DNA of 64,000 bases from the IMG/VR virus record IMGVR_UViG_3300042890_005556. One strand, 5' to 3'. This DNA is from a virus. Positions 9,314 through 64,000 of the stretch are shown in pieces. The notes under the pieces are model-generated. The model did not search any database and had not been told where the DNA came from. It was given only the letters and a program-made list of their open reading frames with translations. The position numbers were made by a program, and so were the translations under genes. Every line of letters begins with the position of its first letter. Within the stretch, counting starts at the first letter, position 1.

Positions 9314-9314
9314 A

Positions 9315-14847: not shown

Positions 14848-16053
14848 TTATGCGCTATAAAAATCTTTAAAATGGCGATAGGCACGCCATTTCTTACCGA
14901 TAGAAACCTTCACCGGAAAAATGTATTCCTCCTCAAGCACCCCATCAAACGGTCTCAACATAATATCACAGACCTGCCTAATGGTACTATTAACCTCAGC
15001 CTTATCTGGAGGAGAAGCGACCACAATTGAGTCATGAATGTCACATACGATTCTTGAGCCCATCTTCTCCCATATCTTCCTAATAGCTATATGCATCGCG
15101 TGAGCCACAGATCCCTGCATAACACCATTAAACGACGACAACCGATTCTTCTCATCTGTAACAATGAACTTTCTTCCAAGAACAGTACTCATAGAATCCC
15201 TAGCAGAAAGACGCATGATCCAATCACCAAGATCAGGATAAGCTTTATCGAAAACAATGCTGTTGTAATCCAAAGAATTGATGCATCGCAAAAGAATTAG
15301 CTTACATTCATCACGAGAAAAAGTCTGATCCAATTCTTTCTGCTTACTAGCATCATTAAGGATAGACGCGAGCTTGGTGTACGGATCAGAATCGACGAAG
15401 GCAGATGTCAAAGCTTTATCATTAGACAACATAGAAGCCACCCTAATATCAGCACAAATCCAGTCGAAATGAATCAGTACATCATTCTCCGAGCCATAGA
15501 TAGTAGTCACATGATCCTTAGTGGAGAGACCCTGGATATTGAACTCAAGGCTCTTGCTCCTGCCAGTATGTGTTCTCTGACTCCATATAGGCTGGATATG
15601 GGTATAATTATACAGCAACCCGCTATTCTCTAAGTCCGCGTATACTATCGAAGAATTAGCTAGGTATTTCTGGTAAACATTGACTTTATGTTTAGCCATT
15701 TCTTCGAATATCTCTTCGGCATACCTTTCATCAGATCTAACACAATCATCACTGTCTTTCCTGGCCATATGAAAATCGAAAACATTATATTCGCGATAGT
15801 CTATCGGTAAATCGAGTACGGTGATTAGATCTCTAAAATCTTGGCAAACTATCTCGAAATTCTTGTCATTTAATTTTAGGAAACACTCTCTAGCTTTGAG
15901 TGTTTCCTTCTTAATTTGCTTGATAGTTTTTAGTGAGCCTTCTCTATAAAGATCGAATTTATATGTCTTGCCATCTATGAGGAATGATATAAATCTCGGC
16001 AGTTTCTTGTTTTTATCTCTATTGAAGATAACTGCTATATATGCTCTTCGCAC
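14848..16053 (-). CDS. Short family-A DNA polymerase-like protein (degenerate motif B, no exonuclease)
   Basis: TGRSKS..NIQ; motif A HFDWICADIRV; NGVMQGSVA; motif C IHDSIV; FPVKVSIGKKW. Confidence 0.8.
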   Translation of the reverse strand: MRRAYIAVIFNRDKNKKLPRFISFLIDGKTYKFDLYREGSLKTIKQIKKETLKARECFLKLNDKNFEIVCQDFRDLITVLDLPIDYREYNVFDFHMARKDSDDCVRSDERYAEEIFEEMAKHKVNVYQKYLANSSIVYADLENSGLLYNYTHIQPIWSQRTHTGRSKSLEFNIQGLSTKDHVTTIYGSENDVLIHFDWICADIRVASMLSNDKALTSAFVDSDPYTKLASILNDASKQKELDQTFSRDECKLILLRCINSLDYNSIVFDKAYPDLGDWIMRLSARDSMSTVLGRKFIVTDEKNRLSSFNGVMQGSVAHAMHIAIRKIWEKMGSRIVCDIHDSIVVASPPDKAEVNSTIRQVCDIMLRPFDGVLEEEYIFPVKVSIGKKWRAYRHFKDFYSA

Positions 16054-23358: not shown

Positions 23359-23897
23359 GATGAACTAGACCAGGATGATTCAACAGGTACGTTTTGCTTA
23401 GAAACCCAGTAATGATATCTATCTTGACAAATACTTATTTCAAGGTCTCTAGAAGATGCTTCGACTGAAGCATTCTTCCTAAAATCGACTCCACCACAAA
23501 CGCACACATTCTTAGAAATGCTATTTTTCCCACATTTTAAGCACACATATGGCTGTTTAGACATATTGACAGAAACTTTTCCGAAGACAGCATAATAATA
23601 AGCATCTGACAACACAAGATCTACACCTGTTAAACCACAAAAATGCTTCACAATGCCAGTCCTATTGTTCATACTAGAAGTATAAACATTAACGACTTCA
23701 TCAGAAACACTTTCATAACATGCAGCACAAAAATCAAATGACTTCTCCGGTTTTTGCTGCAGTATATCTGTTATAGGCGGTCTTCTACCGCCATATTGCT
23801 TTACCTTCATCACATTAACACTATAATAATCAAAGTCTTCCTTATTTGTCGCTTTGCATATATCACATATTATTCCGGTTTGATCTTGTGTTTGCAT
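23355..23897 (-). CDS. Cys-rich hypothetical protein
   Basis: Multiple CxxC pairs. Confidence 0.55.
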   Translation of the reverse strand: MQTQDQTGIICDICKATNKEDFDYYSVNVMKVKQYGGRRPPITDILQQKPEKSFDFCAACYESVSDEVVNVYTSSMNNRTGIVKHFCGLTGVDLVLSDAYYYAVFGKVSVNMSKQPYVCLKCGKNSISKNVCVCGGVDFRKNASVEASSRDLEISICQDRYHYWVSKQNVPVESSWSSSS

Positions 23898-25110
23898 CGG
23901 ACTTTCTCTTAAGTTTCGATATCTTCTGACGTCTACTTACACAAAACATACCCCTAGCATCGAAATCAACAGGTATATGAATTCCAATACCTGGCTCAAA
24001 ACACGCTTCATCCTGCATCATTAATTCCTTCTCCCATACAAACACCATACAATCAGCAATCCCATCAGTACCAAAAATCTTGCCATAAGGTTTACCTGTC
24101 TTAGTCATATCCCTAACGAATTTGCTAGTGTATAAGTGTAGAAAATTGTTTCCCTCCTCCTTAGAAGCGCGATCCTTAGAAGCAGCTATGGTTCCATCAC
24201 CGGTTATCTTATAAGAACCAAGCGGAGAATCAAGGTAATACCCAATATACTCTTGCTGGAAAGCCAATCTTTCTTCTAAAGTAAAATCGTCTAAAGTCAC
24301 TTTATTAATATTTTCTAAAGTGACTTCGATTTTCGGCATCCATTTCGTTATCGCTGGAGGGATTTTATTACGTTTAGGATAGGCGCGGCGATACTCTTGT
24401 TCTTGGCGATCACGCTCCTTGGCAATCGTCTTCTCATCCCATCCTTCTAGAGCCATAAGGTCATTGTGAAGTTGCACTTTCATCTCTCTAATGTCTTTAT
24501 TCACAGAACAGTAAAAATACTGATAATACTTCCACAAAGCACGGCTGTTCTGATGTCCAGGCAATTGCTGGAAAGCATTTAACTTGATAAATCTTTCCAA
24601 AACAGGCTTACTTCTCCGGCCAGAATCTTCACCACCGACAAATTCATCAAGCGATTTATAATCACCCTTTCCAGTAAAAACCAAAGCGGCTGAATCACCA
24701 ATGCCTTTAATACCAATCATGCCCTGATTAATACTGTCGCCAGATACCTTAAATCCACGCTGAAGATTATTTATATCAATAGTACCGAAGTGAACACCCT
24801 CGGCTGGAATGGCTGGTTTATGGCTCCCACTGTATGTGATTACCGACGGCTTCCATTCTTCAGACCTAGCCATGCCCATATATCTAGGCAACTTCTTGGC
24901 ATGGCAGTCACTCATAATAGCAGCCCAAAACTCAGGTGCAAAATGCGCCTTTAACCACAAGCACCTCATAGTCAGCAGGCAATAACTCACACTATGTGAA
25001 TTTTGATGGATCGTCGGGCTATGATCAGTCTGGTAATTGTGATCATCAGATTCCATCTCAGGTGAAAACGTCTGGGAAAAACCGAGAGATCTTATATTGG
25101 TGATTTTCAT
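23863..25110 (-). CDS. dnaE: DNA polymerase III alpha, C-terminal part, preceded by C-intein
   Basis: 37-aa IntC then SHSVSY..WLKAHFAPEFWAA, GMIGIKGIG (HhH), C-terminal OB-like region. Confidence 0.9.
   Translation of the reverse strand: MKITNIRSLGFSQTFSPEMESDDHNYQTDHSPTIHQNSHSVSYCLLTMRCLWLKAHFAPEFWAAIMSDCHAKKLPRYMGMARSEEWKPSVITYSGSHKPAIPAEGVHFGTIDINNLQRGFKVSGDSINQGMIGIKGIGDSAALVFTGKGDYKSLDEFVGGEDSGRRSKPVLERFIKLNAFQQLPGHQNSRALWKYYQYFYCSVNKDIREMKVQLHNDLMALEGWDEKTIAKERDRQEQEYRRAYPKRNKIPPAITKWMPKIEVTLENINKVTLDDFTLEERLAFQQEYIGYYLDSPLGSYKITGDGTIAASKDRASKEEGNNFLHLYTSKFVRDMTKTGKPYGKIFGTDGIADCMVFVWEKELMMQDEACFEPGIGIHIPVDFDARGMFCVSRRQKISKLKRKSDANTRSNRNNM
25000..25110 (-). mobile_element. Split intein, C-terminal half (IntC, 37 aa)
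   Basis: MKITNIRSLG...DHNY...IHQN followed by Ser+1. Confidence 0.85.
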
Positions 25111-25113
25111 GAT

Positions 25114-26622
25114 TTATTTAATACATTTAGACCATTCTAATTTAAAATGTCCAGCATCCCAATATCTGCGATATCCGTTATTAAACATGTTTTGAGCTTC
25201 AGTCAAATCTGAATCAAAGTTTTCTAATAGCTTTTTAAGCTTGTGCTTCTGGAAACTCTGCCTATTAAAATTTCTATTTCCTCTCATGTATCTATAATTC
25301 GGTTTCGTTTTTGATACAAGCATAAAACCGGCAGCTTGATATGAACCGGCATTGGCACTAAATCGGCGATCAGTATATGTAAAGATGTACTTTGGATCTT
25401 GACGTTTTACGAAATATTGTAACAACCGACTTAGTCCTCCGACAACGACATGATTTAATAAAGTGGCAAACCTCGAGATTTCCCATCCTTTATCAAGACT
25501 GATACATGACATCAGCCTATTATTAAGGAATAAACCATAATATACATCGGCTGGCTTTTTACCTTGTATGTGGTTATTTTTAAAAAATTCTGAAGCTGTC
25601 TCATCGTCTACCTCTGATATAGAACAATTCCTCGCATATATCTTCCGACTTTTACCGAGCCTATGCAATATCATTGATTCGATTATTGATCTCTTATTAC
25701 ACCATTCATAGTCGTATACCTGTATCAGATTTAGCCCCTGTGTATTAGCAAAATCGGCTTTTCTCTGATTTTTATATTTTTCAGAAGTAGACTCCGTTCT
25801 GCCATATGAATGCCAGTATAAACCATGATATTCAACAGCAAATTTCGCATCTGGGACATAGATATCTAATTCATAATTAAACGGCAAAACATCTCTTACA
25901 TTTACATCAACGGCGCCTTCATAGTTATCACTAATGAACTTTGCTATCTCAGATTCAGCATTAGATGAAGAAGCCTCAAAGGCACATTTTGGACATCCAT
26001 TTTTGTAGTGTACATGATGTGAAGGGCGTTGCAGAAAAGATCCATGGCTGGTGCATACTATTTCTACTTTAGACCTCATGTCAATTATTTCTACTTTGGA
26101 ATAATCATAAGTGCCGTCATGGATCATATTAGCATTTTCTAAAAATTCTTCTGTCGAAATATGTCTGTCTTCACGGTATGATCTTTTATTCCAATATTCC
26201 TTTCTTGCTTCCCGGATTTTTGATTTATAGTCTTCATCAGTCTTAAACTTATTCTTTAAAGTCTCAGATATCTTGGATTTAAACGCTTGGTCATTTTTCA
26301 ATAGCGATCCCCTCTCTACGGCCTGAAGACGATATTCTTCACGTTCCCAATTCTTCTTACTATTCTCAGAACGATTTTCAAACGAATATTTTTTGGCACC
26401 AACAAGCGAACTTGACCTCATACTTTCAATATAACTTGGCACCTGTCTTAGACAAGAATTACACAATAGTTTGTCAGTATATCTAGCTTGCCTATTGAAT
26501 GTTCTTATAATCTCAATATACTGGCGTTGGCAAACACATTGACATTCTGAACATCTAAAATCCACCTTTTCTTTACTATTTGGCCTTGCACTAACACCTT
26601 GCAGATTTAGTGCTGGTGACAT
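25114..26622 (-). CDS. Free-standing homing-endonuclease-like protein (Zn fingers + Vsr/PD-(D/E)XK-like nuclease + Hef-type C-terminal domain)
   Basis: YDYSKV..C..HG.F...H...GCPKC; ELDIYVP..AVEYHGLYWH; RKIYARNC..NHIQG..EISRF..YTDRRFS..WDAG; start set at MSPAL (AAAGGA RBS). Confidence 0.8.
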   Translation of the reverse strand: MSPALNLQGVSARPNSKEKVDFRCSECQCVCQRQYIEIIRTFNRQARYTDKLLCNSCLRQVPSYIESMRSSSLVGAKKYSFENRSENSKKNWEREEYRLQAVERGSLLKNDQAFKSKISETLKNKFKTDEDYKSKIREARKEYWNKRSYREDRHISTEEFLENANMIHDGTYDYSKVEIIDMRSKVEIVCTSHGSFLQRPSHHVHYKNGCPKCAFEASSSNAESEIAKFISDNYEGAVDVNVRDVLPFNYELDIYVPDAKFAVEYHGLYWHSYGRTESTSEKYKNQRKADFANTQGLNLIQVYDYEWCNKRSIIESMILHRLGKSRKIYARNCSISEVDDETASEFFKNNHIQGKKPADVYYGLFLNNRLMSCISLDKGWEISRFATLLNHVVVGGLSRLLQYFVKRQDPKYIFTYTDRRFSANAGSYQAAGFMLVSKTKPNYRYMRGNRNFNRQSFQKHKLKKLLENFDSDLTEAQNMFNNGYRRYWDAGHFKLEWSKCIK

Positions 26623-28489
26623 CCAATCCTTTGTCGACAATTTCAATGACTGTATGATATTGTCCGTCTGCACATAGGAATTTATGTCTAGCGGTGACTC
26701 GTTCTGTGGTTCCATCTTCGAATGTGACCTCAAATACTTCTTGTATACCGGTGTCGTGAATATCAACGCATTTATCATTAACCATCAGACCATCATGCAA
26801 CGACTTTAACACTGGCTTCTGACTCGATCTATACCAATCCTCAATAGTCTTGGTTATTTCAGTGGACTGACAAGTTAACATTGTATCTTTGTGAAGACAT
26901 TTGTTAAATGCATACCTGCCGAATGTTTCCATCTTCTCCCACCAGTACGCAGCAGCTTCCTCACCAATAGACTTACCAGCACCCTCAAGCCATTTGGTCT
27001 TAATCGGCTTCAATTTGTGTGTCCACTTCTTAGCCACGGCCTTCCGAGCATCCTGTGATTCAGGACTAGTGAAAGCAGCAAGCCTCTGCCATAGTGCCTG
27101 TAACTGCTCTTGGTAAACAATAACTCCATAGGTGGACTCAAGAACAGATAAAAACTCTGGGTGCAACTTCTCTTTCCATTTATTCAGACTATCATCGCGG
27201 TTAGCCATAGCCTCAGGAATAGATTGCATAGGACCTGGGTGGCCCATAGCATTTAAAAGCATTAAGTCTTCGAAAGACTTCACACCATGTTCTAAGATCC
27301 CTTTGCCATTATCTGTATCAAATTGAAATATGCCATCAGTCTTCTTATCGTTCGCAAGCTTCAAAGCTGCTGGATCATCCATATTTATAAAATGTTTCTC
27401 CCCGCTCTGATCGAAATAAAAGCCGATTATCCTTTGCTCTGGGTCATTATAATCCATGCCCTCAAGATTATCACCAAACGAAATCCCGCGATTTTCTTCG
27501 ATAAACTTGCATGCCTCGAATAGGTACTTCACAGTCTTTAAACCGAGTAGATCCCATTTAACATAACCGAATTTGCTCAACTGAGTGGTTCTGCCCTCGG
27601 TCCACATGCTTACCCAAAAACCCTTTTTACCACTTTTCGCCATTGGAACGTTCCCAAACAATGGCCTGTCAGTAATAATCAGAGCTCCTGCATGCATCCC
27701 CTGATTCCTAATCCGGCCAACTAGCTGCTTGGCGTAGTCAACAACATTCGGGTGTATACGATATAATTCAGCAAGCTCTTTTACTTCTGCTAGAAGCTTA
27801 CCAATGGTCGGGGCCTCGGTATCTGTCTGATTACAAAAAGGGCATATTTTCGCATCATGCACCTTACCGCAATCTTGTTCGGCCCCTTCGATGATGATTC
27901 TACTTTTGCAAACGGAAAACCCGCCTTCTCTCAGATCATCGACTTCATCTGGCATCTCAGTGGTGAAACGCTCTGCCTCGTATCGTGTCATAACACCAAG
28001 TGCCGTAGACACGTCTAAAATCGCACTTCTTAACTTGTAGGTCTGCCAGGTCCCAACAGAGCAAACACTGCCATAAACATCATCAACGTTACTGCCATAA
28101 CGCTGAATCGCATATTCCTTCAAAGGATCTCTAGATTCTGGGATACAATCGATATCGATATCTGGCATGTCAGTATCTTTAGTGATATCTTCAGGATAAT
28201 ACCCATACTTGTTCTTATAACTCATAACACTAGAAGCCGCAATTGAATTAAGCATCGGCGTGGTCCGCTCATAGAACGGATCATCATCAGAAACACCCAA
28301 CAGATACGCTATGAGAAGCCTATTTGGGTTTTTAAGCCCCTTTTGATCAGATTCAGCAACACGTATCCAGTATGCTTCTGTACCCTGTTTTTCAATCTCT
28401 GATATTTCAAACATCAATCTATCAACATACGTGCTGCCTAACGCTTCACCTTTTGGTATCAACGTTTCTTTCATATCATTCCAGGTCAT
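26591..28489 (-). CDS. dnaE: DNA polymerase III alpha, catalytic middle part, followed by N-intein
   Basis: MPDIDID, GMHAGAL, VKWDLLGL, GIFQF, YGVIVYQEQ, YAFNK then intein. Confidence 0.92.
   Translation of the reverse strand: MTWNDMKETLIPKGEALGSTYVDRLMFEISEIEKQGTEAYWIRVAESDQKGLKNPNRLLIAYLLGVSDDDPFYERTTPMLNSIAASSVMSYKNKYGYYPEDITKDTDMPDIDIDCIPESRDPLKEYAIQRYGSNVDDVYGSVCSVGTWQTYKLRSAILDVSTALGVMTRYEAERFTTEMPDEVDDLREGGFSVCKSRIIIEGAEQDCGKVHDAKICPFCNQTDTEAPTIGKLLAEVKELAELYRIHPNVVDYAKQLVGRIRNQGMHAGALIITDRPLFGNVPMAKSGKKGFWVSMWTEGRTTQLSKFGYVKWDLLGLKTVKYLFEACKFIEENRGISFGDNLEGMDYNDPEQRIIGFYFDQSGEKHFINMDDPAALKLANDKKTDGIFQFDTDNGKGILEHGVKSFEDLMLLNAMGHPGPMQSIPEAMANRDDSLNKWKEKLHPEFLSVLESTYGVIVYQEQLQALWQRLAAFTSPESQDARKAVAKKWTHKLKPIKTKWLEGAGKSIGEEAAAYWWEKMETFGRYAFNKCLHKDTMLTCQSTEITKTIEDWYRSSQKPVLKSLHDGLMVNDKCVDIHDTGIQEVFEVTFEDGTTERVTARHKFLCADGQYHTVIEIVDKGLDVTSTKSARC
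26594..26899 (-). mobile_element. Split intein, N-terminal half (IntN, 102 aa)
   Basis: Begins CLHKDT (block A) directly after YAFNK; block B VTARHKFL. Confidence 0.88.
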
Positions 28490-30020: not shown

Positions 30021-31415
30021 TCACTTAAATTCGGGTAGTTTTACATTCAGCAAATAGCCGCCACGACTCGGACTCAAGAATCTGTCGAATGACAAACCCC
30101 ATTTAAGCGGGTCAATGCTAGATATTCCAAGCAGATAGCAAACCAAACTCCCTGGAGCACTGCCACGAGGATAAAACGGAAATCCTAGAGACCTCCCATG
30201 ATCTATTAGGTCATATGTTATTAAAAAATAACTGCTAAAACCTTTCTCGATGAACCGAGTAAGTTCTATTCTGGCTTGCTCTGCATATGTCACAAGCTTG
30301 CCATCAACTGGGAACTTAGTCTTCACCTTATCTAAACCAAGCTCTTTGAGTCTCTTCGTCGCAATACGAATCAATTCTTGGTCTGACTGATCGACAGACG
30401 GAATCTTGGGCGTGGAGTCTACATTTAATTTAGAACATCTATTAGCGATTTCTAGAGTATTATCACAAGCTTTCTGGAAAAACCCATCATCGATACCTTT
30501 GCTGTAGGCATTTTCAGTAAATCTCTCATGTAATTCCTCTCGGGTCTTCATGTACTGCTCATCACTATTAACGTGAAAAAGATCAGGGCTATCAACGGTT
30601 GTCTCCTGTGAAATAGCCATCATGATCTTCTGCAATATAAAATCCTTGCGGTGCATGTAATGACAATCATTCGTGATCACCGACGGTACCTTATAATGAT
30701 CAGCAAGTTCGACCTGCCACCGAAAGACCTTCTCATCATTCTCGACCCCAGGCATTTGTAACTCCATAAAATAATCTTCGCCAAATGCGTCTTTGAATTT
30801 TTTTATATAAGCTGCGGCATCCCTAAAACACTCCTTAGAGCTTCTCTCCCAGACCACATTGTCCTCTTTATCCTTAATACTTCTGAATCTAAGCTCATGA
30901 CTAACTGGTCCGTTTAAGCATCCAGAAAGAATGATTAATCCCTCTTTGTACTCACAAAGCTTTTCAAACCATATCCTATTATACTGTGTAGAGCCGAGTC
31001 CAAACAATCCTGTATCATAAGCCTGAGTAGTGAGCTTTATAAGGTTCTCGACACCAGTCTGATTCTTACATACGACAGTTAAATGCCTGTTCCGGAACAT
31101 CCTTGCAGCGAGCTCTTGATTTTCTTTGCGCCATTCTGGAGACCTATATTTAACACCATCCGCGTGCATTTTCTGTCTTAGCGGCTCATAATCATTATAA
31201 TATATCTCACAACCGACTATACTCTTTAGACCGTATTGTTGAAACGCGATGTACATGTCAGGGACACTACCCATATGACCATGCTCCGTAGCAGCCATAG
31301 CCGGATATCCAAGATTATGACACCTCTCGGCATATTGCTGCGGAGACGATACCCCATCAAGAAAGCTGAAAATAGTATGAGCATGGAGATGGACAAAAGG
31401 AGCGTGCGATTGCAT
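30021..31415 (-). CDS. dnaE: DNA polymerase III alpha, N-terminal part (PHP domain + start of palm)
   Basis: FVHLHAH..FLDG, TEHG, GCEIY, SGCLNG, TNDCHY; RGSAPGSLVCYLLGISSIDP..FDRFL. Confidence 0.92.
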   Translation of the reverse strand: MQSHAPFVHLHAHTIFSFLDGVSSPQQYAERCHNLGYPAMAATEHGHMGSVPDMYIAFQQYGLKSIVGCEIYYNDYEPLRQKMHADGVKYRSPEWRKENQELAARMFRNRHLTVVCKNQTGVENLIKLTTQAYDTGLFGLGSTQYNRIWFEKLCEYKEGLIILSGCLNGPVSHELRFRSIKDKEDNVVWERSSKECFRDAAAYIKKFKDAFGEDYFMELQMPGVENDEKVFRWQVELADHYKVPSVITNDCHYMHRKDFILQKIMMAISQETTVDSPDLFHVNSDEQYMKTREELHERFTENAYSKGIDDGFFQKACDNTLEIANRCSKLNVDSTPKIPSVDQSDQELIRIATKRLKELGLDKVKTKFPVDGKLVTYAEQARIELTRFIEKGFSSYFLITYDLIDHGRSLGFPFYPRGSAPGSLVCYLLGISSIDPLKWGLSFDRFLSPSRGGYLLNVKLPEFK

Positions 31416-53639: not shown

Positions 53640-53664
53640 AAATAAAGTAACTAGTGAGAAAAAT

Positions 53665-54207: not shown

Positions 54208-54295
54208 ATATCAAGAACGGATATTTTATCCTATCTTGTATATACCGAATACAAGCCAGCTTCGCAAGTACACCTCGTCATAGAAGATCAAAAAG

Positions 54296-55183: not shown

Positions 55184-55227
55184 CCGGCTCTCCACCAAAC
55201 GGTAACTATAATTAGCGCCTATATTCT

Positions 55228-57093
55228 TTGCATACAAATGGGAATGATATGATAAACATAGAATCAGATCCAATTGACTTGGATACTATCCTCAAAGCTT
55301 TCAAAGAACTAGCCAGTAATATAAACATTAATGATGACAGACAAAAATTAGAAGATGATGTGGTAATATTATGTCAGACTTTCAGAGCTATAAAAGTAAC
55401 TGGTTATGAAGACGGTGTAAGAGAAGCTTATCAAGAAGTATGCGAAAAATTAGCAGACACGATATGTGATAGCCGATTCGATTTTGATAGACATTTCTGC
55501 TTTAAAATGCAAGAGTATGGTAATGTCTTCTCGAATCTCGTAGCATCATGCGACCTAAAAAACACAGACAAGTATATCGAAAGATTAAGAAATGACGATC
55601 AAAAACACAGCATTTACAAAAGACTGTTTCTAACATCGTCTAGAAACAAGCAGGAGTACATTAAAGAGGTAGCTGACCACTACCACACAGATATACCGCT
55701 ATACAACAATTGGGCGTCTAATTTATTCCAAATAATATCATGCGGCCTTCTGAATATGCACGTAAGAGATAATTTAATATTCTTAAGCAATTACATAATT
55801 GCAAACGAGTTCAAATGGGCTGCAGCAATCGGCGACGTGTATAACCATTCAGCATACACAGATAACCCATTAGAAAGACGATTAAAGGAACATATAAACG
55901 ACCAATGCAAAGAACTTTTTCATCCAGACTTTGTACCCATAAACAATAAGACTAAAAGAATAGGCATTTTTACAGAAAATTTTTTTCAAGGTCACAGCAC
56001 CCACAGGACAGTGGCGAAATACATTCATGCTTTGGCTGATAGATACGAATTAATATTGCTGCACGGTGAACGATACAGGGTATTACCGCTGAACGTTAAA
56101 TCCGATGAGAGAATATTCAAGGAAATTCATCAAATAAGCATTTTTGGGACTTACGATCCATTTGAAATGTCCATAGTTGGGCCACAGAATCTAAAGCTGG
56201 ACATATTGATATACCCAGACTGTGCATGCGACGCATTATCACTAATAATGGCAAATATGCGGCTTGCACCAGCGCAGATGGCTATGACAGGAATGCCCAC
56301 TAGCACATTTAATAGCGAAATAGATTACTTTATATCAGGCAGAGACGTAGAATGCCTTGAAAAAATCGATGACAATTATAACGAAAGAGTCGTTTGCTTG
56401 CCGGGTTTAGGGGCGATCCATACGAGACACACACCTATAAAAGAATTCACAAAGCCAGAACCCAAAGACGACATTCTAATTGGCGGCTCATGGGTATGCC
56501 CCAAAACGCACCACTTTATGGCTTCCGCATTAGGTGAAGCGCTTAACAGAGTGAATAAAAAATGCACATTGAGAGTGTTCGCAGGGCTAGCTTGGTTTAC
56601 AGCCAACAGAGTATACGTTCCATATATCGATGAACTTGGAAAATATTTCAACGACAACATCACTCTTAGTATTATTGAAGGTGCAGAAGGGCACAAATAT
56701 AACGACTTGATGGCAGAAGTAGATTTAGCTGTTGACAGTTACCCTTGGGGAGGTTCTAACACGGTCAGCGACTGTATCCAATTAAATAAACCAGTTGTAG
56801 TTTGGCAAGGCGACAAATGGTATAATAGAATCGGTCCAGCTATGTTAAGACGCATAGGTCTAGAGAGTCTAATAGCTAAAAACAGAACAGAATATATTGA
56901 TAAGACTATCAGATTAGTGGAAGATGATGCTTGGAGAATAGAGCTAAGCGAGCTGATTAGCGAGCATAACAAATCGGGACTTGTGGACTCCGAAATCTAC
57001 AATAGTCAGAAAGGTGTAGAAGCATTTTCTACATTTATAGATAACGTGATAAATGGTAACATACAACCAGGAAAAGAGCCGCTTTTATTGTGA
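55228..57093 (+). CDS. GT41-family (O-GlcNAc transferase / HMW1C-like) protein glycosyltransferase
   Basis: HSTHR, LDILIYPD, MRLAPAQMAMTGMPTST, IDYFIS, DLAVDSYPWGGSNT. Confidence 0.8.
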   Translation: MHTNGNDMINIESDPIDLDTILKAFKELASNININDDRQKLEDDVVILCQTFRAIKVTGYEDGVREAYQEVCEKLADTICDSRFDFDRHFCFKMQEYGNVFSNLVASCDLKNTDKYIERLRNDDQKHSIYKRLFLTSSRNKQEYIKEVADHYHTDIPLYNNWASNLFQIISCGLLNMHVRDNLIFLSNYIIANEFKWAAAIGDVYNHSAYTDNPLERRLKEHINDQCKELFHPDFVPINNKTKRIGIFTENFFQGHSTHRTVAKYIHALADRYELILLHGERYRVLPLNVKSDERIFKEIHQISIFGTYDPFEMSIVGPQNLKLDILIYPDCACDALSLIMANMRLAPAQMAMTGMPTSTFNSEIDYFISGRDVECLEKIDDNYNERVVCLPGLGAIHTRHTPIKEFTKPEPKDDILIGGSWVCPKTHHFMASALGEALNRVNKKCTLRVFAGLAWFTANRVYVPYIDELGKYFNDNITLSIIEGAEGHKYNDLMAEVDLAVDSYPWGGSNTVSDCIQLNKPVVVWQGDKWYNRIGPAMLRRIGLESLIAKNRTEYIDKTIRLVEDDAWRIELSELISEHNKSGLVDSEIYNSQKGVEAFSTFIDNVINGNIQPGKEPLLL

Positions 57094-57971
57094 AAATACT
57101 TTTCATCGCAGATCCAATAGAAAGCATAAAGAAATATAGTTTCATAAATGACTATATGAGAGATCTGCTATACCATGGATTATTAGAAACTGAAGATGTG
57201 GAAATAGAATGCACAAAACCAATTATACCAGCTCACAAACAGTATAAAAGCCAAATAAGCCCAGAGTTATTATGGGGAAAAGGATTTACAGCATCATTTC
57301 TTATAGACGACGCGCCAAAAATAGCAGAAGACGTTGAAAATAAAATCAAAGACAAACATTATGATCTCATACTCTATGCTGATTCGAGAACATGTCTAGA
57401 CTACTATAGAATATGTAATGATGTTTATGATAGTGACCGAATTTTTATGGTTGATGGTCGTGATGATAACGAAGTGGCTAGTACCGCTGACAAGCATTTA
57501 TATTTCAAACGGGAGCTGGTTGACGATAGCCGATGTGAACCTATTTCATTTGCGATCCCCGAGTCTAAAATCTTTTCTGATGATGTAATGAAAGCGATGC
57601 ATATTGCTACGATTATACCAGGAGACATGTCAACATACATTTTCGATACTGAGAGCAGTTACTATAATGACTATCAAATGTCTATGTTTGGATTAACCCG
57701 TAAGAAAATGGGCTGGGATTGCATGAGACATTATGAGATAATAGCTAATAGGTGTGTGCCTGTTTTTGCGGATATAGCTGAGTGCCCTAAAAAGACATTA
57801 GTAAACTTTCCTAAAGAGCTGTGTCTTGAAGCTTTGGATTTATATCATAACTTTAAAAATAATGATGCATGTCACGAGAGATATTTTAATATAGAGCTCC
57901 AGTTCATAAATCATTTGATTAAGCATCAAACCACAAAAGCTTTGGCATCTTACGTGTTATCGTTTTCGTAA
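57090..57971 (+). CDS. Glycosyltransferase-like protein
   Basis: YFKREL..PISFAIP..KKMGWDCMRHYEIIAN.CVP. Confidence 0.6.
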   Translation: MKILFIADPIESIKKYSFINDYMRDLLYHGLLETEDVEIECTKPIIPAHKQYKSQISPELLWGKGFTASFLIDDAPKIAEDVENKIKDKHYDLILYADSRTCLDYYRICNDVYDSDRIFMVDGRDDNEVASTADKHLYFKRELVDDSRCEPISFAIPESKIFSDDVMKAMHIATIIPGDMSTYIFDTESSYYNDYQMSMFGLTRKKMGWDCMRHYEIIANRCVPVFADIAECPKKTLVNFPKELCLEALDLYHNFKNNDACHERYFNIELQFINHLIKHQTTKALASYVLSFS

Positions 57972-58717
57972 AATATGGCGTTTTGGGACGTATAGTCTAT
58001 ATCGCTGGCTATGTCGACTAATATTTTTGGTCTTACTATGTCGGATTCTACATTAATATCTTTTAAATATGTTCGGAATATTGTTTCAGGGTGATATATC
58101 CCGCACATTCTGGTGTAGTATCCGAATGTTGGGAAAAGATTGCTATATTTGTCCATCAGTTCAGATGGTCCAAATGCAAACTGGTCGTTAATGCCTCCCA
58201 TCCAATCTCTATAGATCGGCACGTTTATTTTATGAAGATCATATTGGTCTAGCGGGCTCATTACCTTAATTTCTGAGTCATATCGCATACGGATTACGAC
58301 GTCGAATTTCATTGCGTTTTCGTTTTCGTAATATGATTTTAAAGCATTTGCTGCTCTGATTGAGTAGTGCATGCTTATTGGGCCTATGTTTGAGCCTATA
58401 GAGTGTAGGTTAATGTCTTCTACGCTGGTTATCTCTAAGAAATGCGGTAGCAGTTCCATTGTAACTTGATCGTAGTCTTCTATGGCTTGGTATATTGGGT
58501 TATAGAGCTGGGCTATTTGGTGTGTGTTGAGTTCTACGTTGGTCAGGTATTCGTGTTGCTTGTGTTTTGACCAGCTGTCTTCTATCAATCTGAGGGGGTT
58601 AATATTGTATGTGTGTAGGAATATTTTTGGATTGTAGTCTGAAAAATAGTCTTGTATGCTTTTTAGGCTGTTTTGGTAGTATTTTGTTGTGCCTGAGATG
58701 CAGATTGCTATTTGCAT
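57950..58717 (-). CDS. Glycosyltransferase-like protein
   Basis: IAICISG..FDVVIRMRYD..INDQFAFG. Confidence 0.6.
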   Translation of the reverse strand: MQIAICISGTTKYYQNSLKSIQDYFSDYNPKIFLHTYNINPLRLIEDSWSKHKQHEYLTNVELNTHQIAQLYNPIYQAIEDYDQVTMELLPHFLEITSVEDINLHSIGSNIGPISMHYSIRAANALKSYYENENAMKFDVVIRMRYDSEIKVMSPLDQYDLHKINVPIYRDWMGGINDQFAFGPSELMDKYSNLFPTFGYYTRMCGIYHPETIFRTYLKDINVESDIVRPKILVDIASDIDYTSQNAIFYENDNT

Positions 58718-58729
58718 GTTTTGCCCTTT

Positions 58730-58773
58730 ATTATAAGTAAAGAGCCCTTTTGTGTGGGCTCTTTACTTATAAT
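58730..58773. terminator. Perfect 18-bp hairpin, probable terminator or processing signal
   Basis: ATTATAAGTAAAGAGCCC-ttttgtgt-GGGCTCTTTACTTATAAT. Confidence 0.7.
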
Positions 58774-58776
58774 TAT

Positions 58777-60066
58777 TCAGGGAGTGAGACCGTGTGATAG
58801 GCAGACTAGTTTTATTTGGTCTCTAAAGTCATTTACTGATCTTATGGTGATTCCAAAGAATTCGGCCATGTGGTTGATTTTTGGGTCACCAGCTCCAAAT
58901 CTGTCGCTGAATGATTCATATACTTCACCGTTTTGGATCAGTATATCGTAAACTTGTTGACAAAGTCCCTTTGGCAGGGATTTCCGTATGGTAGACAAAG
59001 CATCTTCGGCTTCTATTACTGAAACGTGATCTTCCAAGATCATTTTCTGGCCCTCAACAAAGCGGTGGCCTATCTGGTCTAGAGTAGAACCACCTTCGTC
59101 CTCGGTGACACTTAGTTGATTGTCCAGAACAGTTACGTGTTCTGGGCGAATCACTACTGCTTCAAGCTCATCCTGACAAGAAGACTCATCCGTGATTTGG
59201 ATAGATATCGTATTGTTATCGATACCTAATAATACGCCATGTCTTATTGCTTTTTCTTTGATTTTAGAAAATTCAATAGAGAATTCTGGTGGCGTTTGCA
59301 TTCCTAAAATATGGAACGCATAGTGACTATCTTCCTTGGCACAATTGTAATCAATGTTCATCTGGGAGCATGTACTTGCTAGCTCTTCGGAGATGATGTA
59401 GTCTGGGCGACCGCTGATCAATTGTGGTACCTTTTTATGTTCTTGGCGTTTGTTTTCTTTTAAGTGTTGTCTGAAGTAATTCCAGGCGAATTCACCAAAG
59501 AATTTCTTGAGCTGCTTTGGGTCGTTGACGATTGCTTCTGGGTTCTCATATTTTCTCTCGCCAGGGATTGGCTGTATTGGCGATATGATTTTTGATCCTG
59601 AGTACCCTTCTGCTAGAAGCAAGCGGTAGTCGTCGTAGTCAATGAATGTTTTTTCGGTGGTGAGGTTGCCTTTTTCGGCTATTTTGACTTTATTACAGCT
59701 AGGGCAACATATGAGTTGCTGGTCTATGCTCTTGGCTTTACCTCTTTTTGTCAGATATTGTGTCTGCTGGCAACTTTCGCATTTAAATGTGTAGTCGCGG
59801 TGGTAAAAGAGGTTTATCACTCCGCGCCATATTGCTATCTGATATTCTAGCTCGGCTGCTGTAGAGTCGTCGGCGTAGTCTCCGCCAATTGTCACCCTGA
59901 ATTGTTTCATTATCTCTGCTCTATGTCTTACCATTTCTTTATGATTTGACACATATGTCACCATGTCATGCACTTTTTGTCGTTCGTCTTCTGAGATTTG
60001 CGACATGGTGATGTTTACCAATGAGCCTCTGAGATATAGCTTTGGCATTTGACGAACAATCGGCAT
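58777..60066 (-). CDS. Sigma70-like/HTH transcription factor with zinc-ribbon insertion
   Basis: Region-2-like EYQIAIWRG..FAWNYFRQ; CESC..CCPSC; C-terminal HTH INHMAEFFGITIRSV; GGAGG RBS. Confidence 0.5.
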   Translation of the reverse strand: MPIVRQMPKLYLRGSLVNITMSQISEDERQKVHDMVTYVSNHKEMVRHRAEIMKQFRVTIGGDYADDSTAAELEYQIAIWRGVINLFYHRDYTFKCESCQQTQYLTKRGKAKSIDQQLICCPSCNKVKIAEKGNLTTEKTFIDYDDYRLLLAEGYSGSKIISPIQPIPGERKYENPEAIVNDPKQLKKFFGEFAWNYFRQHLKENKRQEHKKVPQLISGRPDYIISEELASTCSQMNIDYNCAKEDSHYAFHILGMQTPPEFSIEFSKIKEKAIRHGVLLGIDNNTISIQITDESSCQDELEAVVIRPEHVTVLDNQLSVTEDEGGSTLDQIGHRFVEGQKMILEDHVSVIEAEDALSTIRKSLPKGLCQQVYDILIQNGEVYESFSDRFGAGDPKINHMAEFFGITIRSVNDFRDQIKLVCLSHGLTP

Positions 60067-60141
60067 TTGTTACCTCCATGGTTGTGTGATTACCACTGCC
60101 GTATTTTAGAACAGACAATCCTTTTTGGCAGGAGATCCGCC

Positions 60142-60903
60142 ATGGCTCAGTATTGCGACACGAAGAAACTCGAAAAGGTCTGGTTTAACTGGCTTCTATC
60201 CAAATCAGCACCCACGCTGGAGCCATACAGGAAAGCGGGTGTGTTGTGGACTAAAGCCATAGGTCTCGTCGATGTGAAGGGTGAGGTGATTGTCAAAGGT
60301 GGTAAGACCTTTAAAAGTCCTACACATCCTATCAGATCGCACTGTATCTTGTCAAGATATCCGTTCTTCTTTACCACTTTTAATGGTAAGCCACAAGAAC
60401 TTGCGTCCCAAATACATTATAACGAAGATGGTGATTATACGACAACCCCCATTGCACTTTCAGAGATAGAAATAGTAAAAACCAAGCCGGAAATAAAAGA
60501 CATAGAACAAATACTACTAAAAGATGGCTACATCCTAGATGCAGAAACAGGAAAAAGCTGGGAGTCCATGTTAATAGACATCAATAAAATGTGCCTCGGA
60601 ATAGCATCTAAATTCCATCAAAAAACAGCAGAAGAATTGAATGATTTAGCTAACGAAGCATTATTGCAAGTAGCTAACAAATTATCTACGGATAGGCTGG
60701 TATATACTCCCGGAAGGGCACCAGTATTCAATTTATTAACCACCACTATACATCGATGCATGTTTTCAATTATGAATAAAAGGAAAAATCAAAGAGAAGG
60801 GCTTAACAGATTACTGCAGGACGCACAATCTGGGTCATTACCTCAAACTAACAGAAGCCTGAGACTCCAAACATTCACGACGAGAAAACATGAAAATCGT
60901 TAG
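60142..60903 (+). CDS. Late sigma factor, T4 gp55-like
   Basis: MAQYCDTKKL...MCLGIASKF...DLANEALL...PVFNLLTTTIHRCMFSIMNKRK; GGAG RBS. Confidence 0.55.
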   Translation: MAQYCDTKKLEKVWFNWLLSKSAPTLEPYRKAGVLWTKAIGLVDVKGEVIVKGGKTFKSPTHPIRSHCILSRYPFFFTTFNGKPQELASQIHYNEDGDYTTTPIALSEIEIVKTKPEIKDIEQILLKDGYILDAETGKSWESMLIDINKMCLGIASKFHQKTAEELNDLANEALLQVANKLSTDRLVYTPGRAPVFNLLTTTIHRCMFSIMNKRKNQREGLNRLLQDAQSGSLPQTNRSLRLQTFTTRKHENR

Positions 60904-61831
60904 TAACAAACACATTGTGCCAGCAGTAACAAAAAAACCAATAGACAATATTAAAATAGTTGTTAGTCCCCATAATAAAACTATAAGCACACTAAATGCT
61001 TATAATCAATCAGCCCATATGAAAGTAATCCCAGCACAAATAGCACCGCAGATCAAAAACAAAGCAGTCATTGATAAAAGCCTAGTAAAAAGAACTCAAA
61101 ACCCAAATAAACCAAAACCACCAGCATCGGTAACTTACGCTTCCGGCGAAGCACCAATCGAAAGCATACCAAAAATATACGGTATAAAAGACATAGGTAA
61201 AGGTAAGACATTAGTAGTCATAGCAAACGGCCCAAGTATAAACGAAGTTGAATTGGAGAGGCTAAAAGACAAGCCAGGCATCGACACTCTATCAATAAAC
61301 AGACCGGACCCACGGGTCTGGCCAACCACATATTGGTCATTTTACGACCAATCACAGCTTGTGCGACACGAAGACCTGTATAATTATTATGAAGGCATAA
61401 CCTTTCTAAGCACAGCCATCAAGAGAGACAAGGCCAGAAGCATAAAGTTTAAAAATTTTGGCAAAAAGCAATTTAGCAGAGACTTAACAAAGGGATTATG
61501 TATAGGACGCACAAGCTGCTATGCTGCTATGCAACTTGCTTTATGGATGGATTACGATAAGATATTCTTTTTTGGGGTTGATATGCACCCAGATGGTATT
61601 GACGGCAAGCTCCATTTCTACGGGACAAATCCCGACGTAGACCCTGATATTAGGAAAAAACGATTTAACTCAGAAGCAGAATACTTCGAATTTGCCGCAG
61701 ATAACATGGAATACCAAGAGAGAAAGAGATTTCACTTTTGTTCGTCTTACCTGACATGGCCCTTTAAATCGCGTTTCAATTACTTAGATCACAAGACTGC
61801 TATAGACGTGATTTTAGGGTCAATGCTATGA
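60890..61831 (+). CDS. DUF115/MptE-like (sialyltransferase-like) protein
   Basis: VIANGPS..INR..TSCYAAMQLALWMDY..FFGVD..HFY. Confidence 0.7.
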   Translation: MKIVSNKHIVPAVTKKPIDNIKIVVSPHNKTISTLNAYNQSAHMKVIPAQIAPQIKNKAVIDKSLVKRTQNPNKPKPPASVTYASGEAPIESIPKIYGIKDIGKGKTLVVIANGPSINEVELERLKDKPGIDTLSINRPDPRVWPTTYWSFYDQSQLVRHEDLYNYYEGITFLSTAIKRDKARSIKFKNFGKKQFSRDLTKGLCIGRTSCYAAMQLALWMDYDKIFFFGVDMHPDGIDGKLHFYGTNPDVDPDIRKKRFNSEAEYFEFAADNMEYQERKRFHFCSSYLTWPFKSRFNYLDHKTAIDVILGSML

Positions 61832-61840
61832 TTCAACCTA

Positions 61841-62227
61841 ATGTATTATAAAACCATGAGATACTACATAGCATCTAGTTTAGACAATGTTGCCAATGTT
61901 CGTAACGCCATTATGAGGCTGACCGAAGCTGGGTTTAGTGTCACACATGATTGGACAAGACATGGCAGAATCACAGACCCATCACAGTATCAAGCCATTG
62001 GCGAAGCAGAGTACCAAGGCGTGATTGATGCAGATTTCATCGTGTTTTTTATGCCGACTAGGTATGGAAGCCATGTTGAATTCGGTATAGCACTAGCCTC
62101 TAACAAACCGATTTATATGGTCACAAACGGCGTGGAATTTGAAGAAAAAACATTCTATCATCTACCATCCGTACATAGATACAGCGATTTAAATGAACTA
62201 TTGCGCGAATGGGGAATAGACAAATGA
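61841..62227 (+). CDS. Nucleoside 2-deoxyribosyltransferase / deoxynucleotide N-hydrolase family protein
   Basis: YYIAS, GVIDADFIV, GSHVEFGIALASNKPI (catalytic Glu motif). Confidence 0.75.
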   Translation: MYYKTMRYYIASSLDNVANVRNAIMRLTEAGFSVTHDWTRHGRITDPSQYQAIGEAEYQGVIDADFIVFFMPTRYGSHVEFGIALASNKPIYMVTNGVEFEEKTFYHLPSVHRYSDLNELLREWGIDK

Positions 62228-62928
62228 GTGGAAGCGTATCAACTAAGCTCGAATTAGACGTAATGCAAGTCAATGAATTGCTTGAAGCAAGCGAGCTAAT
62301 GTCCCAACATACGCTACCAGCCATGGTCATACATTCTGGCTTGGCCCCAGACGCTTACGCAGCACGGATGAGAGTCAGAGGCAGGTACAAGATAATCATC
62401 CCTATTGATTGGCCAAAAGGCGAAAATTTTTCTAACTTGAAATTCAGGGGACTAAGCAAGCAAGCACTGGAAGCTGATGGGTTCGAGATAATGGTCACGC
62501 CAGGTAAGACCCTTCTAGATACAAAAAATGAGATCAACGTTCTGACTGAATTCATCAGAAACTTCCTGGGGGAATATGTGGAGGTTCGGTTTGTAATAGG
62601 CAATACTATTAAAACCGACGAGGAAATTGAAGTAATATGCAATGCCTTGTTAGGTATGAGAAACCCCACATTGTTGCGTAGCGATACTATCTTGAAAGTA
62701 CAGCAAAATGTCATCAGCGCAGAGTCGCATCTAGCCTTTGTTAATAAGCTACGCGGCTTTGGTCTTCCCACACCTATAAAGCTATCGGGGAACATGAACA
62801 ACCTGAAATCTATCGCTTCAGCGCCAGCAGTTTTCAGGTATGCTGTCAATGTAACACAAGCCAAGAATATTATTCGAGAGATCTTGCAGCAGCCCAGTGA
62901 ATTGAAGGAAATCCTGTCCGACGTTTGA
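62224..62928 (+). CDS. Deoxyribose-phosphate aldolase (DeoC)-like TIM barrel, divergent
   Basis: IPIDWPKG, ADGFEIMV, VRFVIG, LRSDT, PIKLSGN align by eye with DeoC VIGFPLG, ADEIDMV, LKVIIE, VKTST, VKASGG. Confidence 0.5.
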   Translation: MSGSVSTKLELDVMQVNELLEASELMSQHTLPAMVIHSGLAPDAYAARMRVRGRYKIIIPIDWPKGENFSNLKFRGLSKQALEADGFEIMVTPGKTLLDTKNEINVLTEFIRNFLGEYVEVRFVIGNTIKTDEEIEVICNALLGMRNPTLLRSDTILKVQQNVISAESHLAFVNKLRGFGLPTPIKLSGNMNNLKSIASAPAVFRYAVNVTQAKNIIREILQQPSELKEILSDV

Positions 62929-62938
62929 GAATGACAAT

Positions 62939-63328
62939 ATGATACACGATCATCTAATGGAAGCAATCAGGCAAGATGCCGACCTATTGACTAAATCCGA
63001 TGCGTGGCTCGAAGAAGAGAAGAATTACTTCACAGAGCAGATGCGCAAATCCATAGAAGAGCTAAAACCCATCCTCTTAGCTATAGCTATAAAACAAAAA
63101 TTGCAGCAGCAGAACATGGTGCCTAGGCAGAAGTTCATAAGAGGCAGCACAGGCCAGATAGAGAATGTTGTGATTGACTTCTGTAAGCTACCAGAAGCAC
63201 TGAGAGATATGCTCAATAACGGCAGAGATACCTTAGATCAGTTGATAGCAGCTGGCAATATTGCCACATGGCAGATAGACGGGTATGACGTTAATACCTG
63301 CCTCCAAACGGCACCGAAAGGGATATAA
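62939..63328 (+). CDS. Hypothetical protein
   Basis: 129 aa, TAATG overlap with the purZ-like gene. Confidence 0.6.
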   Translation: MIHDHLMEAIRQDADLLTKSDAWLEEEKNYFTEQMRKSIEELKPILLAIAIKQKLQQQNMVPRQKFIRGSTGQIENVVIDFCKLPEALRDMLNNGRDTLDQLIAAGNIATWQIDGYDVNTCLQTAPKGI

Positions 63329-64000
63329 TGCAAAACGGCAAGCTCAATATAGTCACAGACGGACAGCACGGTAGCACAGGCAAGGGTCTAATCAACGCAT
63401 ATCTAGCCGATAAACACCGACCAGAAATACTCAGCACGACCAATATGGCCAACGCTGGCCACACCGCAGTCAACGAAAACGGCGAACCGTTCATAGCAAA
63501 AGCATTACCGTCATCAGCGGTCCTAAACAAATGGCGAGAGGGCTATAAACCGACAGTATTCGTAGGAGCTTCATCTGCTTTTGATCTGCAACAGCTACTA
63601 AAAGAATGGGAAGAATGCGACAAGCCATTCACACTAATCCATCAAAGAGCGGGTGTCATTACACAAGAGCAAAAAGAAAGAGAATCCGGAGCATCAGGCA
63701 CAAAGCACGTTGCTAGCACCATGCAAGGATGTGGAGCATTTCTAGCAGATAAAGTCATGCGAAGAACAGATTTAAAACTCGCTAGAGATTATGAAGAGCT
63801 TCAACAATTCATGGCCATCAAAGAAGCACATACATGGCTAAAGGCACAGCTCGAAAGCTACGGTACAATTCTCCATGAAGGAAGCCAAGGATTCAGCTTG
63901 GATATAAGCCACGGTAGTCACTATCCAGAGTGTACAAGCCGCAGCACCACTGCTATTCAAAACCTTGCTGACCTTGGTCTTAACCACAAGCAAGTTGGTG
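63328..64000 (+). CDS. purZ: PurZ-type adenylosuccinate synthetase homolog (N6-succino-2-amino-dAMP synthase), truncated by the window end
   Basis: Manual translation: MQNGKLNIVTDGQHGSTGKGLINAYLA...NMANAGHT...ASTMQGCG...EGSQGFSLD...HYPECTSR; Ser in GSTGKG in place of the PurA Asp (GDEGKG). Confidence 0.75.
   Translation, partial: MQNGKLNIVTDGQHGSTGKGLINAYLADKHRPEILSTTNMANAGHTAVNENGEPFIAKALPSSAVLNKWREGYKPTVFVGASSAFDLQQLLKEWEECDKPFTLIHQRAGVITQEQKERESGASGTKHVASTMQGCGAFLADKVMRRTDLKLARDYEELQQFMAIKEAHTWLKAQLESYGTILHEGSQGFSLDISHGSHYPECTSRSTTAIQNLADLGLNHKQVG

Follow-up and report, generated by a model that had tools for sequence, protein, structure and literature searches.

Can a huge bacteriophage that copies its DNA with a family C replicase (DnaE) build its genome with 2-aminoadenine (Z) in place of adenine? 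The question is raised by one end of a 64,000-nucleotide stretch of an uncultured phage (IMG/VR record IMGVR_UViG_3300042890_005556; here, the window), which runs out within a gene for a homolog of PurZ, the succino-amino-deoxyadenylate synthase. To our knowledge, the natural Z genomes that have been demonstrated chemically all come from small phages that use either DpoZ or PrimPol; the known Z-phage records matched in this work measure about 38 to 83 kb. The accessible literature describes no PurZ in jumbo or huge phages, and in a 2026 review of jumbo phages the modifications named include uracil, deazaguanine, and acyl-adenine, with Z absent. The findings presented below make Z-DNA plausible in this phage, its chemistry being something that sequence cannot show.

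A PurZ-type synthetase at the end of the window

The terminal open reading frame (ORF) begins with an ATG and spans 63328..63999 on the plus strand, encoding 224 amino acids (aa) and remaining open to the window end. A sequence-only reading of the stretch had pointed to an open frame of 224 codons with five motifs and had proposed a PurZ-type homolog with serine in place of a catalytic aspartate. All five motifs indeed lie in this ORF: DGQHGSTGKG (aa 11-20), NAGHT (42-46), STMQG (130-134), EGSQGFSL (184-191), and YPECTSR (199-205). Its similarity to synthetases is far above chance, with matches to the Pfam Adenylsucc_synt model at 2.9e-18 and to the NCBIfam PurZ model at 7e-48; the purZ product also matches PHROG 1211 at 3.6e-61. 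In the PDB, the best matches of the 224-aa ORF are the PurZ proteins of phages phiVC8 (1e-26) and S-2L (1.1e-26), with PurA of Pyrococcus horikoshii at 4e-20 and that of Escherichia coli at only 6e-7.

The window holds the 5′ 61% of a gene that is intact. A contig (L076) that is 100% identical to window positions 53328-64000 across 10,673 bases extends 5.98 kb beyond the window end, and the N-terminal 224 residues of a full-length protein of 366 aa (P0285) exactly equal the window ORF. Megablast of the window end against GenBank phages gave no match, and neither did a scan of IMG/VR for exact 49-mers. With P0285, the C-terminal residues, which the sequence-only reading had placed beyond its reach, can be read, and they include ELTTVTKRLRRVF, LNFANY, and GTGPQ. 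A protein search recovered 289 relatives among 90% clusters, many of them from viral contigs of 100 to 436 kb.

Active-site residues

P0285 was aligned with PurZ of phiVC8 (VC8), S-2L, and SH-Ab 15497, with PurZ0 of Ghobes and Gisselle, and with PurA of E. coli and P. horikoshii. The catalytic Asp13 of PurA, which is reported to be conserved in 99% of PurA proteins (PMC12884076), is replaced by Ser16 of GSTGKG, a residue that aligns with S14 of VC8 and S23 of S-2L and is invariant within the family. VC8 T262, the cysteine of YPxCT, and the valine of IRV accommodate the 2-amino group and the deoxyribose of dGMP, and the S-2L insertion after IRV shifts that valine toward C2′ (PMC8342488; bioRxiv 10.1101/2025.10.22.683976). 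P0285 has T281, within a TTVT loop (ELTTVTK), at the position of T262; C202, within YPECTSR, is cysteine as in PurZ, where PurA has valine; and an insertion follows IRV (IRVGN), as in the S-2L and SH-Ab proteins. With respect to the nucleoside triphosphate, VC8 F295 and Y298 stack on the adenine of ATP, and N297 would clash with guanine's 2-amino group (PMC8342488; bioRxiv 10.1101/2025.10.22.683976). The corresponding NFCNY of VC8 appears in P0285 as NFANY (residues 313-317), with Asn316 at the site of the GTP-binding aspartate. The (T/S)xxD motif that carries this aspartate is kept as TKLD in E. coli, as TMLD in P. horikoshii and Gisselle, and as SFAD in Ghobes.

Since P0285 shows the PurZ state at the specificity positions known from the literature, and since the GTP-binding aspartate is kept by PurA and PurZ0, the protein is, as judged by its residues, an ATP-type PurZ and neither a PurZ0 nor a PurA. 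The proposed PurZ-type serine homolog thus finds support in Ser16, TTVT, YPECTSR, and NFANY, the second and last of which became fully legible only with retrieval of the whole gene. Comparison with the characterized ATP-type enzymes (phiVC8, 6FKO/6FM1; S-2L, 7ODX; SH-Ab 15497) reveals a shared short archaeal-type scaffold, the serine, TTVT, YPxCTSR, NFxN/QY, and the insertion after IRV. P0285 differs from them in its overall identity of 33 to 37%, in a His/Trp rather than Phe/Tyr before the P-loop serine, and in a C-terminus like that of archaeal PurA. From PurZ0 (26 to 30% identity), it is set apart by its ATP-type pocket lacking (T/S)xxD. The short archaeal PurA (P. horikoshii, 5K7X/2D7U) belongs to the same length class and is very similar in the C-terminal 90 residues; however, it has GDEGKG, YPYVTSK, GTVTGRRRR, and TMLD and is shorter by about 20 residues after PTRVG, and at each of these points the window protein is PurZ-like.

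Family membership and phylogeny

An alternative is that the gene encodes an archaeal-type PurA acting as an auxiliary metabolic gene, the product of which would form (deoxy)adenylosuccinate from IMP and so feed an AT-rich huge genome. Several observations weigh against the PurZ assignment, some of them in favor of this alternative. The NCBIfam PurZ model (NF038379) is the top-scoring model for P0285, but at 234.2 bits the protein falls short of its 300-bit cut-off, whereas the same model gives 397 bits for phiVC8, 350 for S-2L, 421 for SH-Ab, 346 for Ghobes PurZ0, and 364 for Gisselle PurZ0. The archaeal-type PurA model NF003295 scores almost as high, at 212.5 bits. Pairwise phmmer comparison gives 146 bits against P. 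horikoshii PurA, equal in effect to the 143 bits obtained with each of the S-2L and phiVC8 PurZ proteins (and 71 bits against 7VF6). The last ~90 residues of P0285 align best with archaeal PurA and its active-site residues are PurZ-like, placing it equidistant from the two. Further, the position of VC8 F12 is occupied by histidine in P0285 and by tryptophan across most of the family, the latter being the PurA state. The G+C content of the window (38-44%; about 60% A+T) would also suit an enzyme that supplies adenylate. Against a PurA stand the serine at the Asp13 site, here and wherever the site is covered in the 135 nearest cluster representatives examined; the asparagine in place of the GTP-binding aspartate; and scores far under the PurA cut-offs of 368 to 402 bits (212.5 versus 368 for NF003295 and 124 versus 396 for TIGR00184). 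We hence consider an auxiliary PurA very improbable, while granting that, by these scores, membership of P0285 in the PurZ family is not clean.

The serine recurs among the nearest relatives. When 1.84 billion representatives were searched exhaustively, 2380 of them matched, and we examined the 135 near-full-length proteins (320-450 aa) among the best 150 representatives of 50%-identity clusters. All of these have serine at the Asp13 site wherever the column is covered, and the Ser-type clade is therefore very large, and mostly uncultured and uncharacterized. A phylogeny with PurA, PurZ, and PurZ0 had been suggested by the sequence-only reading as one check. In a FastTree phylogeny that comprises 155 sequences, with E. 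coli PurA as the root, the window family is monophyletic (support, 96) and falls in a clade of 149 rows (96) that includes the characterized PurZ proteins, with PurZ0 outside. That much of the suggested placement was obtained; what counts against it is that the tree is from FastTree only, has a single long outgroup, and leaves out archaeal PurA, and that the phmmer similarity of P0285 to archaeal PurA equals that to PurZ. The position of the window family inside the PurZ clade is accordingly provisional.

In the same tree, the window family is sister to a group with the cultured Flavobacterium phage MaF61 (PQ858689; 167.8 kb), with a support of 98 for the joint 27 rows. The MaF61 gene (L063:4983-6323) likewise resides in a large genome and encodes the serine (GSSGKG) and NFVNY. 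It differs in its ~35% identity, in large insertions that bring the protein to 447 aa, in its score of 145 bits on the PurZ model, and in its neighbors, which encode scaffold, terminase, and ribonucleotide reductase proteins.

As a separate observation, many PurZ-like representatives (P0122, P0123, P0127, P0132, P0144, P0147, and others) are 710 to 810 aa long and are matched by the query in 2 to 3 stretches, a pattern that makes inteins probable in them. Near purZ in one related huge-phage locus lies a gene with intein/LAGLIDADG features (L004:6008-8023).

The purZ neighborhood

Clustering of the gene neighborhoods of 58 loci showed that those with a PurZ of 50% identity or more share a fixed block (Table 1). 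It consists of genes for proteins of 284 aa and 313 aa, a member of the nucleoside deoxyribosyltransferase (NDT) superfamily, a 236-aa protein (the counterpart of the 239-aa protein of the window), a 129-aa protein, and PurZ, followed downstream by genes for a xylose-isomerase-like TIM barrel, 71-aa and 140-aa proteins, and a giant protein. The TIM barrel, which resembles sugar-phosphate isomerases/epimerases, is encoded by the first gene beyond the window end. The giant ORF that follows the module (L076:12548-16654) exceeds 1369 aa here, reaches 2988 to more than 3500 aa in relatives, and has no Pfam match. The 284-aa and 313-aa proteins yield only a faint WaaZ-like match. The 129-aa gene occupies the same position in 18 related loci; its product is matched by nothing in Pfam, NCBIfam, PHROG, or Atlas, and its family alignment displays no recognizable catalytic motif.

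Table 1. Coordinates of the purZ gene, its conserved neighbors, and the replication genes discussed in the text (window positions unless a contig is named)
Feature	Position	Strand	Basis
purZ, 5′ part (codons 1-224; PurZ-type succino-amino-deoxyadenylate synthase homolog, 366 aa in full)	63328..64000	+	ORF and family matches
purZ, 3′ remainder	L076:10674-11101		Contig identical to window end
Conserved 129-aa protein, immediately upstream of purZ	62939..63328	+	Stop overlaps purZ start
239-aa DERA/DeoC-fold TIM barrel, noncanonical active site	62209..62928	+	AlphaFold2 (AF2) and Foldseek
128-aa NDT-superfamily protein, nearest nucleoside-5′-monophosphate N-glycosidases	61841..62227	+	Profile and fold
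Two syntenic genes, 284 aa and 313 aa	60049..61831	+	28-29 related loci, fixed distance
DnaE piece 1, PHP and start of Pol III alpha NTPase	30021..31415	-	Pfam PHP 2e-34, DNA_pol3_alpha 4.8e-21
DnaE piece 2, NTPase (palm) and finger	26591..28489	-	DNA_pol3_finger 1e-27, DNA_pol3_alpha 8.5e-22
HNH/homing endonuclease, 554 aa, between DnaE pieces 2 and 3	25114..26778	-	phrog_559 HNH 3.6e-83, phrog_3339 homing 1e-82
DnaE piece 3, HHH_6/C-terminal part	23863..25110	-	HHH_6 7e-7; phrog_405 DNA polymerase 2.5e-20, profile 794-1020/1190
401-aa mini family A polymerase-like protein, C-terminal palm/finger motifs only	14848..16053	-	Pfam DNA_pol_A 8.5e-13, profile 268-380/381; PHROG DNA polymerase families

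The NDT-like protein, whose gene adjoins purZ in 23 related loci, matches Pfam Nuc_deoxyrib_tr at 6e-6, which is under the cut-off. Its family profile, run against the PDB, retrieves the CMP N-glycosidase BcmB (2.6e-8), BlsM, and MilB and then the NDTs. The AF2 model (predicted local distance difference test [pLDDT], 95.3) matches BcmB, DNPH1, NDT, and MilB in Foldseek. A Tyr/Asp/Glu catalytic triad is matched by residues Y9, D65, and E80, which vary little or not at all. By these models, its closest resemblance is to N-glycosidases of nucleoside and deoxynucleoside monophosphates (BcmB, MilB, and DNPH1). A functional parallel is offered by DmtZ, an NDT-family enzyme of PurZ0 phages with dAMP hydrolase and deoxyribose-phosphate transferase activities and a proven place in the Z pathway, whose reported structural neighbors are those found here for the window protein (PMC12884076). 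NDT domains have also been associated with dZ-enriched contigs (bioRxiv 10.1101/2025.10.22.683976).

The neighboring 239-aa protein, found at the same position in 30 related loci, has no sequence-level match in Pfam or the PDB. Its AF2 model (pLDDT, 86.8; predicted template modeling score, 0.85) points to the fold of deoxyribose-5-phosphate aldolase (DERA): among the Foldseek matches listed to rank 50 against the PDB, all are deoxyribose-5-phosphate aldolases or similar aldolase entries, with template modeling (TM) scores of 0.63 to 0.77, the best being 6d33 (E, 1.5e-11; TM, 0.73-0.77). Alignment with E. coli DERA by hhalign covers only PIKLSGN/GFKPAGG, in which K191 corresponds to K201. The strand 6 position of the Schiff-base lysine (E. 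coli K167) is apparently taken by an invariant arginine, Arg157, with no invariant lysine there, making aldolase activity doubtful. Binding of deoxyribose 5-phosphate is plausible from the modeled fold. Ghobes gp49, considered as a possible relative of this protein, turned out to be unrelated.

These neighbors bear on a second alternative, namely, that the module serves another purine pathway, in which it would form or salvage a different noncanonical purine nucleotide (for example, a retained N6-succinyl adduct or a base-exchange product) or merely rewire the host dGMP/dAMP pools with no change in the DNA. Three of its genes, those for the DERA-fold protein, the isomerase/epimerase-like TIM barrel, and the 129-aa protein, have no counterpart in known Z clusters; the synthetase itself lies outside the curated PurZ model; and no phage PurB, the enzyme that would have to follow PurZ, was found in five complete relatives. 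Nevertheless, all the residues known to confer dGMP and ATP specificity on PurZ are present, and no second base-modifying enzyme was recognized in the module. As for PurB, every Z phage known to us uses that of its host. On balance, we find a different purine product improbable.

Candidate helper functions

The known Z phages pair PurZ with enzymes that adjust the nucleotide pool. Counterparts of these were sought by phmmer with DatZ of three phages, MazZ, DUF550-DUF5664, Ghobes gp48-55, and Gisselle gp47 and gp49 as queries against the window ORFs and the 58 loci. The outcome weighs against the Z reading. Neither phmmer nor Pfam detected a DatZ-, MazZ-, DUF550-, or dUTPase-type gene within the 64-kb window; Pfam over 44 further window ORFs found no HD, MazG, dUTPase, DUF550, or kinase domain; and no DatZ, MazZ, or DUF550 gene occurs within 10 kb of purZ in 57 related loci. 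Five complete relatives include one with a YfbR-type HD protein (the DatZ family) and one with MazG; PurB was found in none of the five, and the same holds for DUF550, a weak negative because the control genomes gave no match either. No relationship in sequence was detected between the NDT-like protein and DmtZ of the Ghobes or Wayne type (no phmmer match; hhalign probability of at most 1%). Nor do the other neighbors help unreservedly: the apparent arginine at the Schiff-base position has been mentioned, and the huge-phage loci with 39 to 50% identical PurZ have none of the block neighbors, so that the block is a lineage trait. The synteny may therefore reflect the history of the lineage rather than function, and taken alone it is weak functional evidence.

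The complete relatives nevertheless do possess other candidates. An NDT-family gene is present in four of the five, adjoining purZ in three, and dUTPase-family genes are likewise present in four, with at least two matches in three of them; sequence alone cannot separate Dut from DutZ among these paralogs. The helper logic may thus match that of the PurZ0 systems (Gordonia phage Ghobes and Wayne-like phages of Arthrobacter), in which PurZ0 is accompanied by DutZ and DmtZ (PMC12884076): an NDT-superfamily gene lies near the synthetase, and dUTPase paralogs occur in complete relatives. The window nonetheless lacks the NDT-Dut fusion of those systems.

Individual relatives are endowed differently. 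The 436-kb relative L058, with a 42%-identical PurZ, encodes a YfbR/DatZ-family HD protein (G005:C1:168856-169341) and has no NDT gene, and the relative L059 encodes a MazG-family protein (G004:C1:76823-77041). Judged from gene content, huge-phage lineages differ in the candidate helpers paired with purZ, and the helper gene set is a point of difference from the known Z phages.

No clear dATPase being present, replacement could be partial. A true PurZ would then give rise, by partial or conditional replacement, to hybrid A/Z DNA in which Z would act as a dose-dependent restriction shield rather than as a fourth base. The absence of DatZ, MazZ, and DUF550 from the window and from most complete relatives fits this version, which supposes a non-selective family C replicase. 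In E. coli, an incomplete Z cluster lowered substitution, and even the full cluster gave 4 to 23% without phage-specific control (PMC8342488). Conversely, the NDT-fold gene and the dUTPase paralogs could remove dATP and dAMP in the manner of DutZ and DmtZ in PurZ0 phages, and all natural Z phages analyzed so far show complete replacement (PMC12884076). We regard partial replacement as unlikely, yet as an explanation deserving attention.

The host genome and its replicase

The sequence-only reading had also held that the window derives from a large phage with a split family C polymerase and an odd, small family A polymerase, and here it was right on each count. A relative with 221/224 identical residues lies on a contig of 231.7 kb, and more distant syntenic relatives are rated complete by CheckV at 354 to 408 kb, sizes that point to a huge phage as the source. 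DnaE is encoded in at least three genes (Table 1), and at least one of the splits is tied to a mobile endonuclease, the HNH gene being situated between pieces 2 and 3. A weak Mom-like match of the endonuclease ORF is secondary, since the strong HNH/homing-endonuclease match explains it. Between pieces 1 and 2 lie three small ORFs (219, 118, and 174 aa; 28486-29981, minus strand) with no family match. The 401-aa family A polymerase-like protein was considered as a DpoZ and rejected, as it has no BLASTP similarity to phiVC8 DpoZ; this, too, would accord with partial replacement. The window further encodes RecA, DnaB, an ATP-dependent ligase, a 5′-3′ exonuclease, UvsY, an SbcC-like ATPase, and a metallophosphoesterase, which is possibly its SbcD/Mre11-type partner, a guess from the Pfam Metallophos match alone.

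One part of the earlier reading can be dispensed with, namely, the idea that Z would have to enter the DNA by an undescribed route. E. coli supplied with only datZ-mazZ-purZ of S-2L incorporated Z to 12.1% of plasmid and 3.9% of chromosomal adenine using its own polymerases (PMC8342488). No new incorporation route is needed, because a DnaE-type host replisome with no phage polymerase tolerated dZTP.

Other features of the window are recorded for completeness. Two adjacent RCC1-repeat proteins (37723-39924 and 39967-41856, minus strand; E, 1e-62 and 1e-79), one with cadherin domains, which are unusual in phage proteins, may be adhesins or fibers. An actin-fold protein (Pfam Volactin, 3.1e-37; 47069-48508, plus strand) is preceded by genes for 948-aa and 441-aa proteins without a family match. 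Several glycosyltransferase genes (GT2, GT7-like, and GT41-like) occur at 4886-9346 (minus strand) and 55228-57093 (plus strand). ARAGORN predicts no tRNA genes in the window, and the coding strand and GC skew both flip near 42-44 kb.

A proposed pathway

Taking these findings together, we infer the following scheme from the residues of the synthetase, the folds of its neighbors, and the gene content of the phage. PurZ would convert dGMP, aspartate, and ATP (or dATP) to N6-succino-2-amino-dAMP (dSMP), from which host PurB and host kinases would produce dZTP. The split DnaE of the phage would insert Z opposite T, such that 2-aminoadenine would replace at least part of the adenine in virion DNA. 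The NDT-like enzyme may remove dAMP, releasing base and deoxyribose 5-phosphate, or swap its base, and the DERA-fold and other sugar-phosphate enzymes may handle the deoxyribose 5-phosphate that is released. The NDT-like and DERA-fold pair could thereby form a branch that depletes A, with a role analogous to that of DmtZ in the PurZ0 phages.

Weighing the PurZ-like active site against the scores and missing helpers, we lean slightly toward the presence of Z in the virion DNA of this phage lineage. A more elaborate version of the scheme is a self-contained module that combines an archaeal-PurA-like, ATP-type PurZ, destruction of dAMP by an NDT-fold enzyme, processing by DERA-fold and xylose-isomerase-like proteins, and replication by a split DnaE, giving Z genomes of 350 to 430 kb. 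We offer this only tentatively and think it rather doubtful that all of its parts would hold.

Implications

This phage is distinguished from the characterized PurZ phages by its huge genome, by a DnaE replicase in place of DpoZ or PrimPol, and by the absence of DatZ, MazZ, and DUF550 genes beside purZ. Tong et al. 2023 (Nat Microbiol) reportedly predicted over 2000 PurZ viruses, and such contigs may already be among them. An archaeal-PurA-like scaffold bearing a PurZ active site has a bearing on the path proposed for the evolution of these enzymes, from archaeal PurA through PurZ0 to PurZ. If the reading of Z in virion DNA is true, Z genomes would for the first time extend beyond small sipho- and podoviruses, and this lineage would have the first natural family C replicase (Pol III alpha) to routinely copy ZTGC DNA. 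A nucleotide glycosidase with sugar-phosphate enzymes would then represent a third helper toolkit beside DatZ/MazZ and DutZ/DmtZ, extending the functional convergence described in PMC12884076. As the lineage is widespread in freshwater and other environmental samples, Z-DNA would be far commoner than supposed and would occur in genomes ten times larger.

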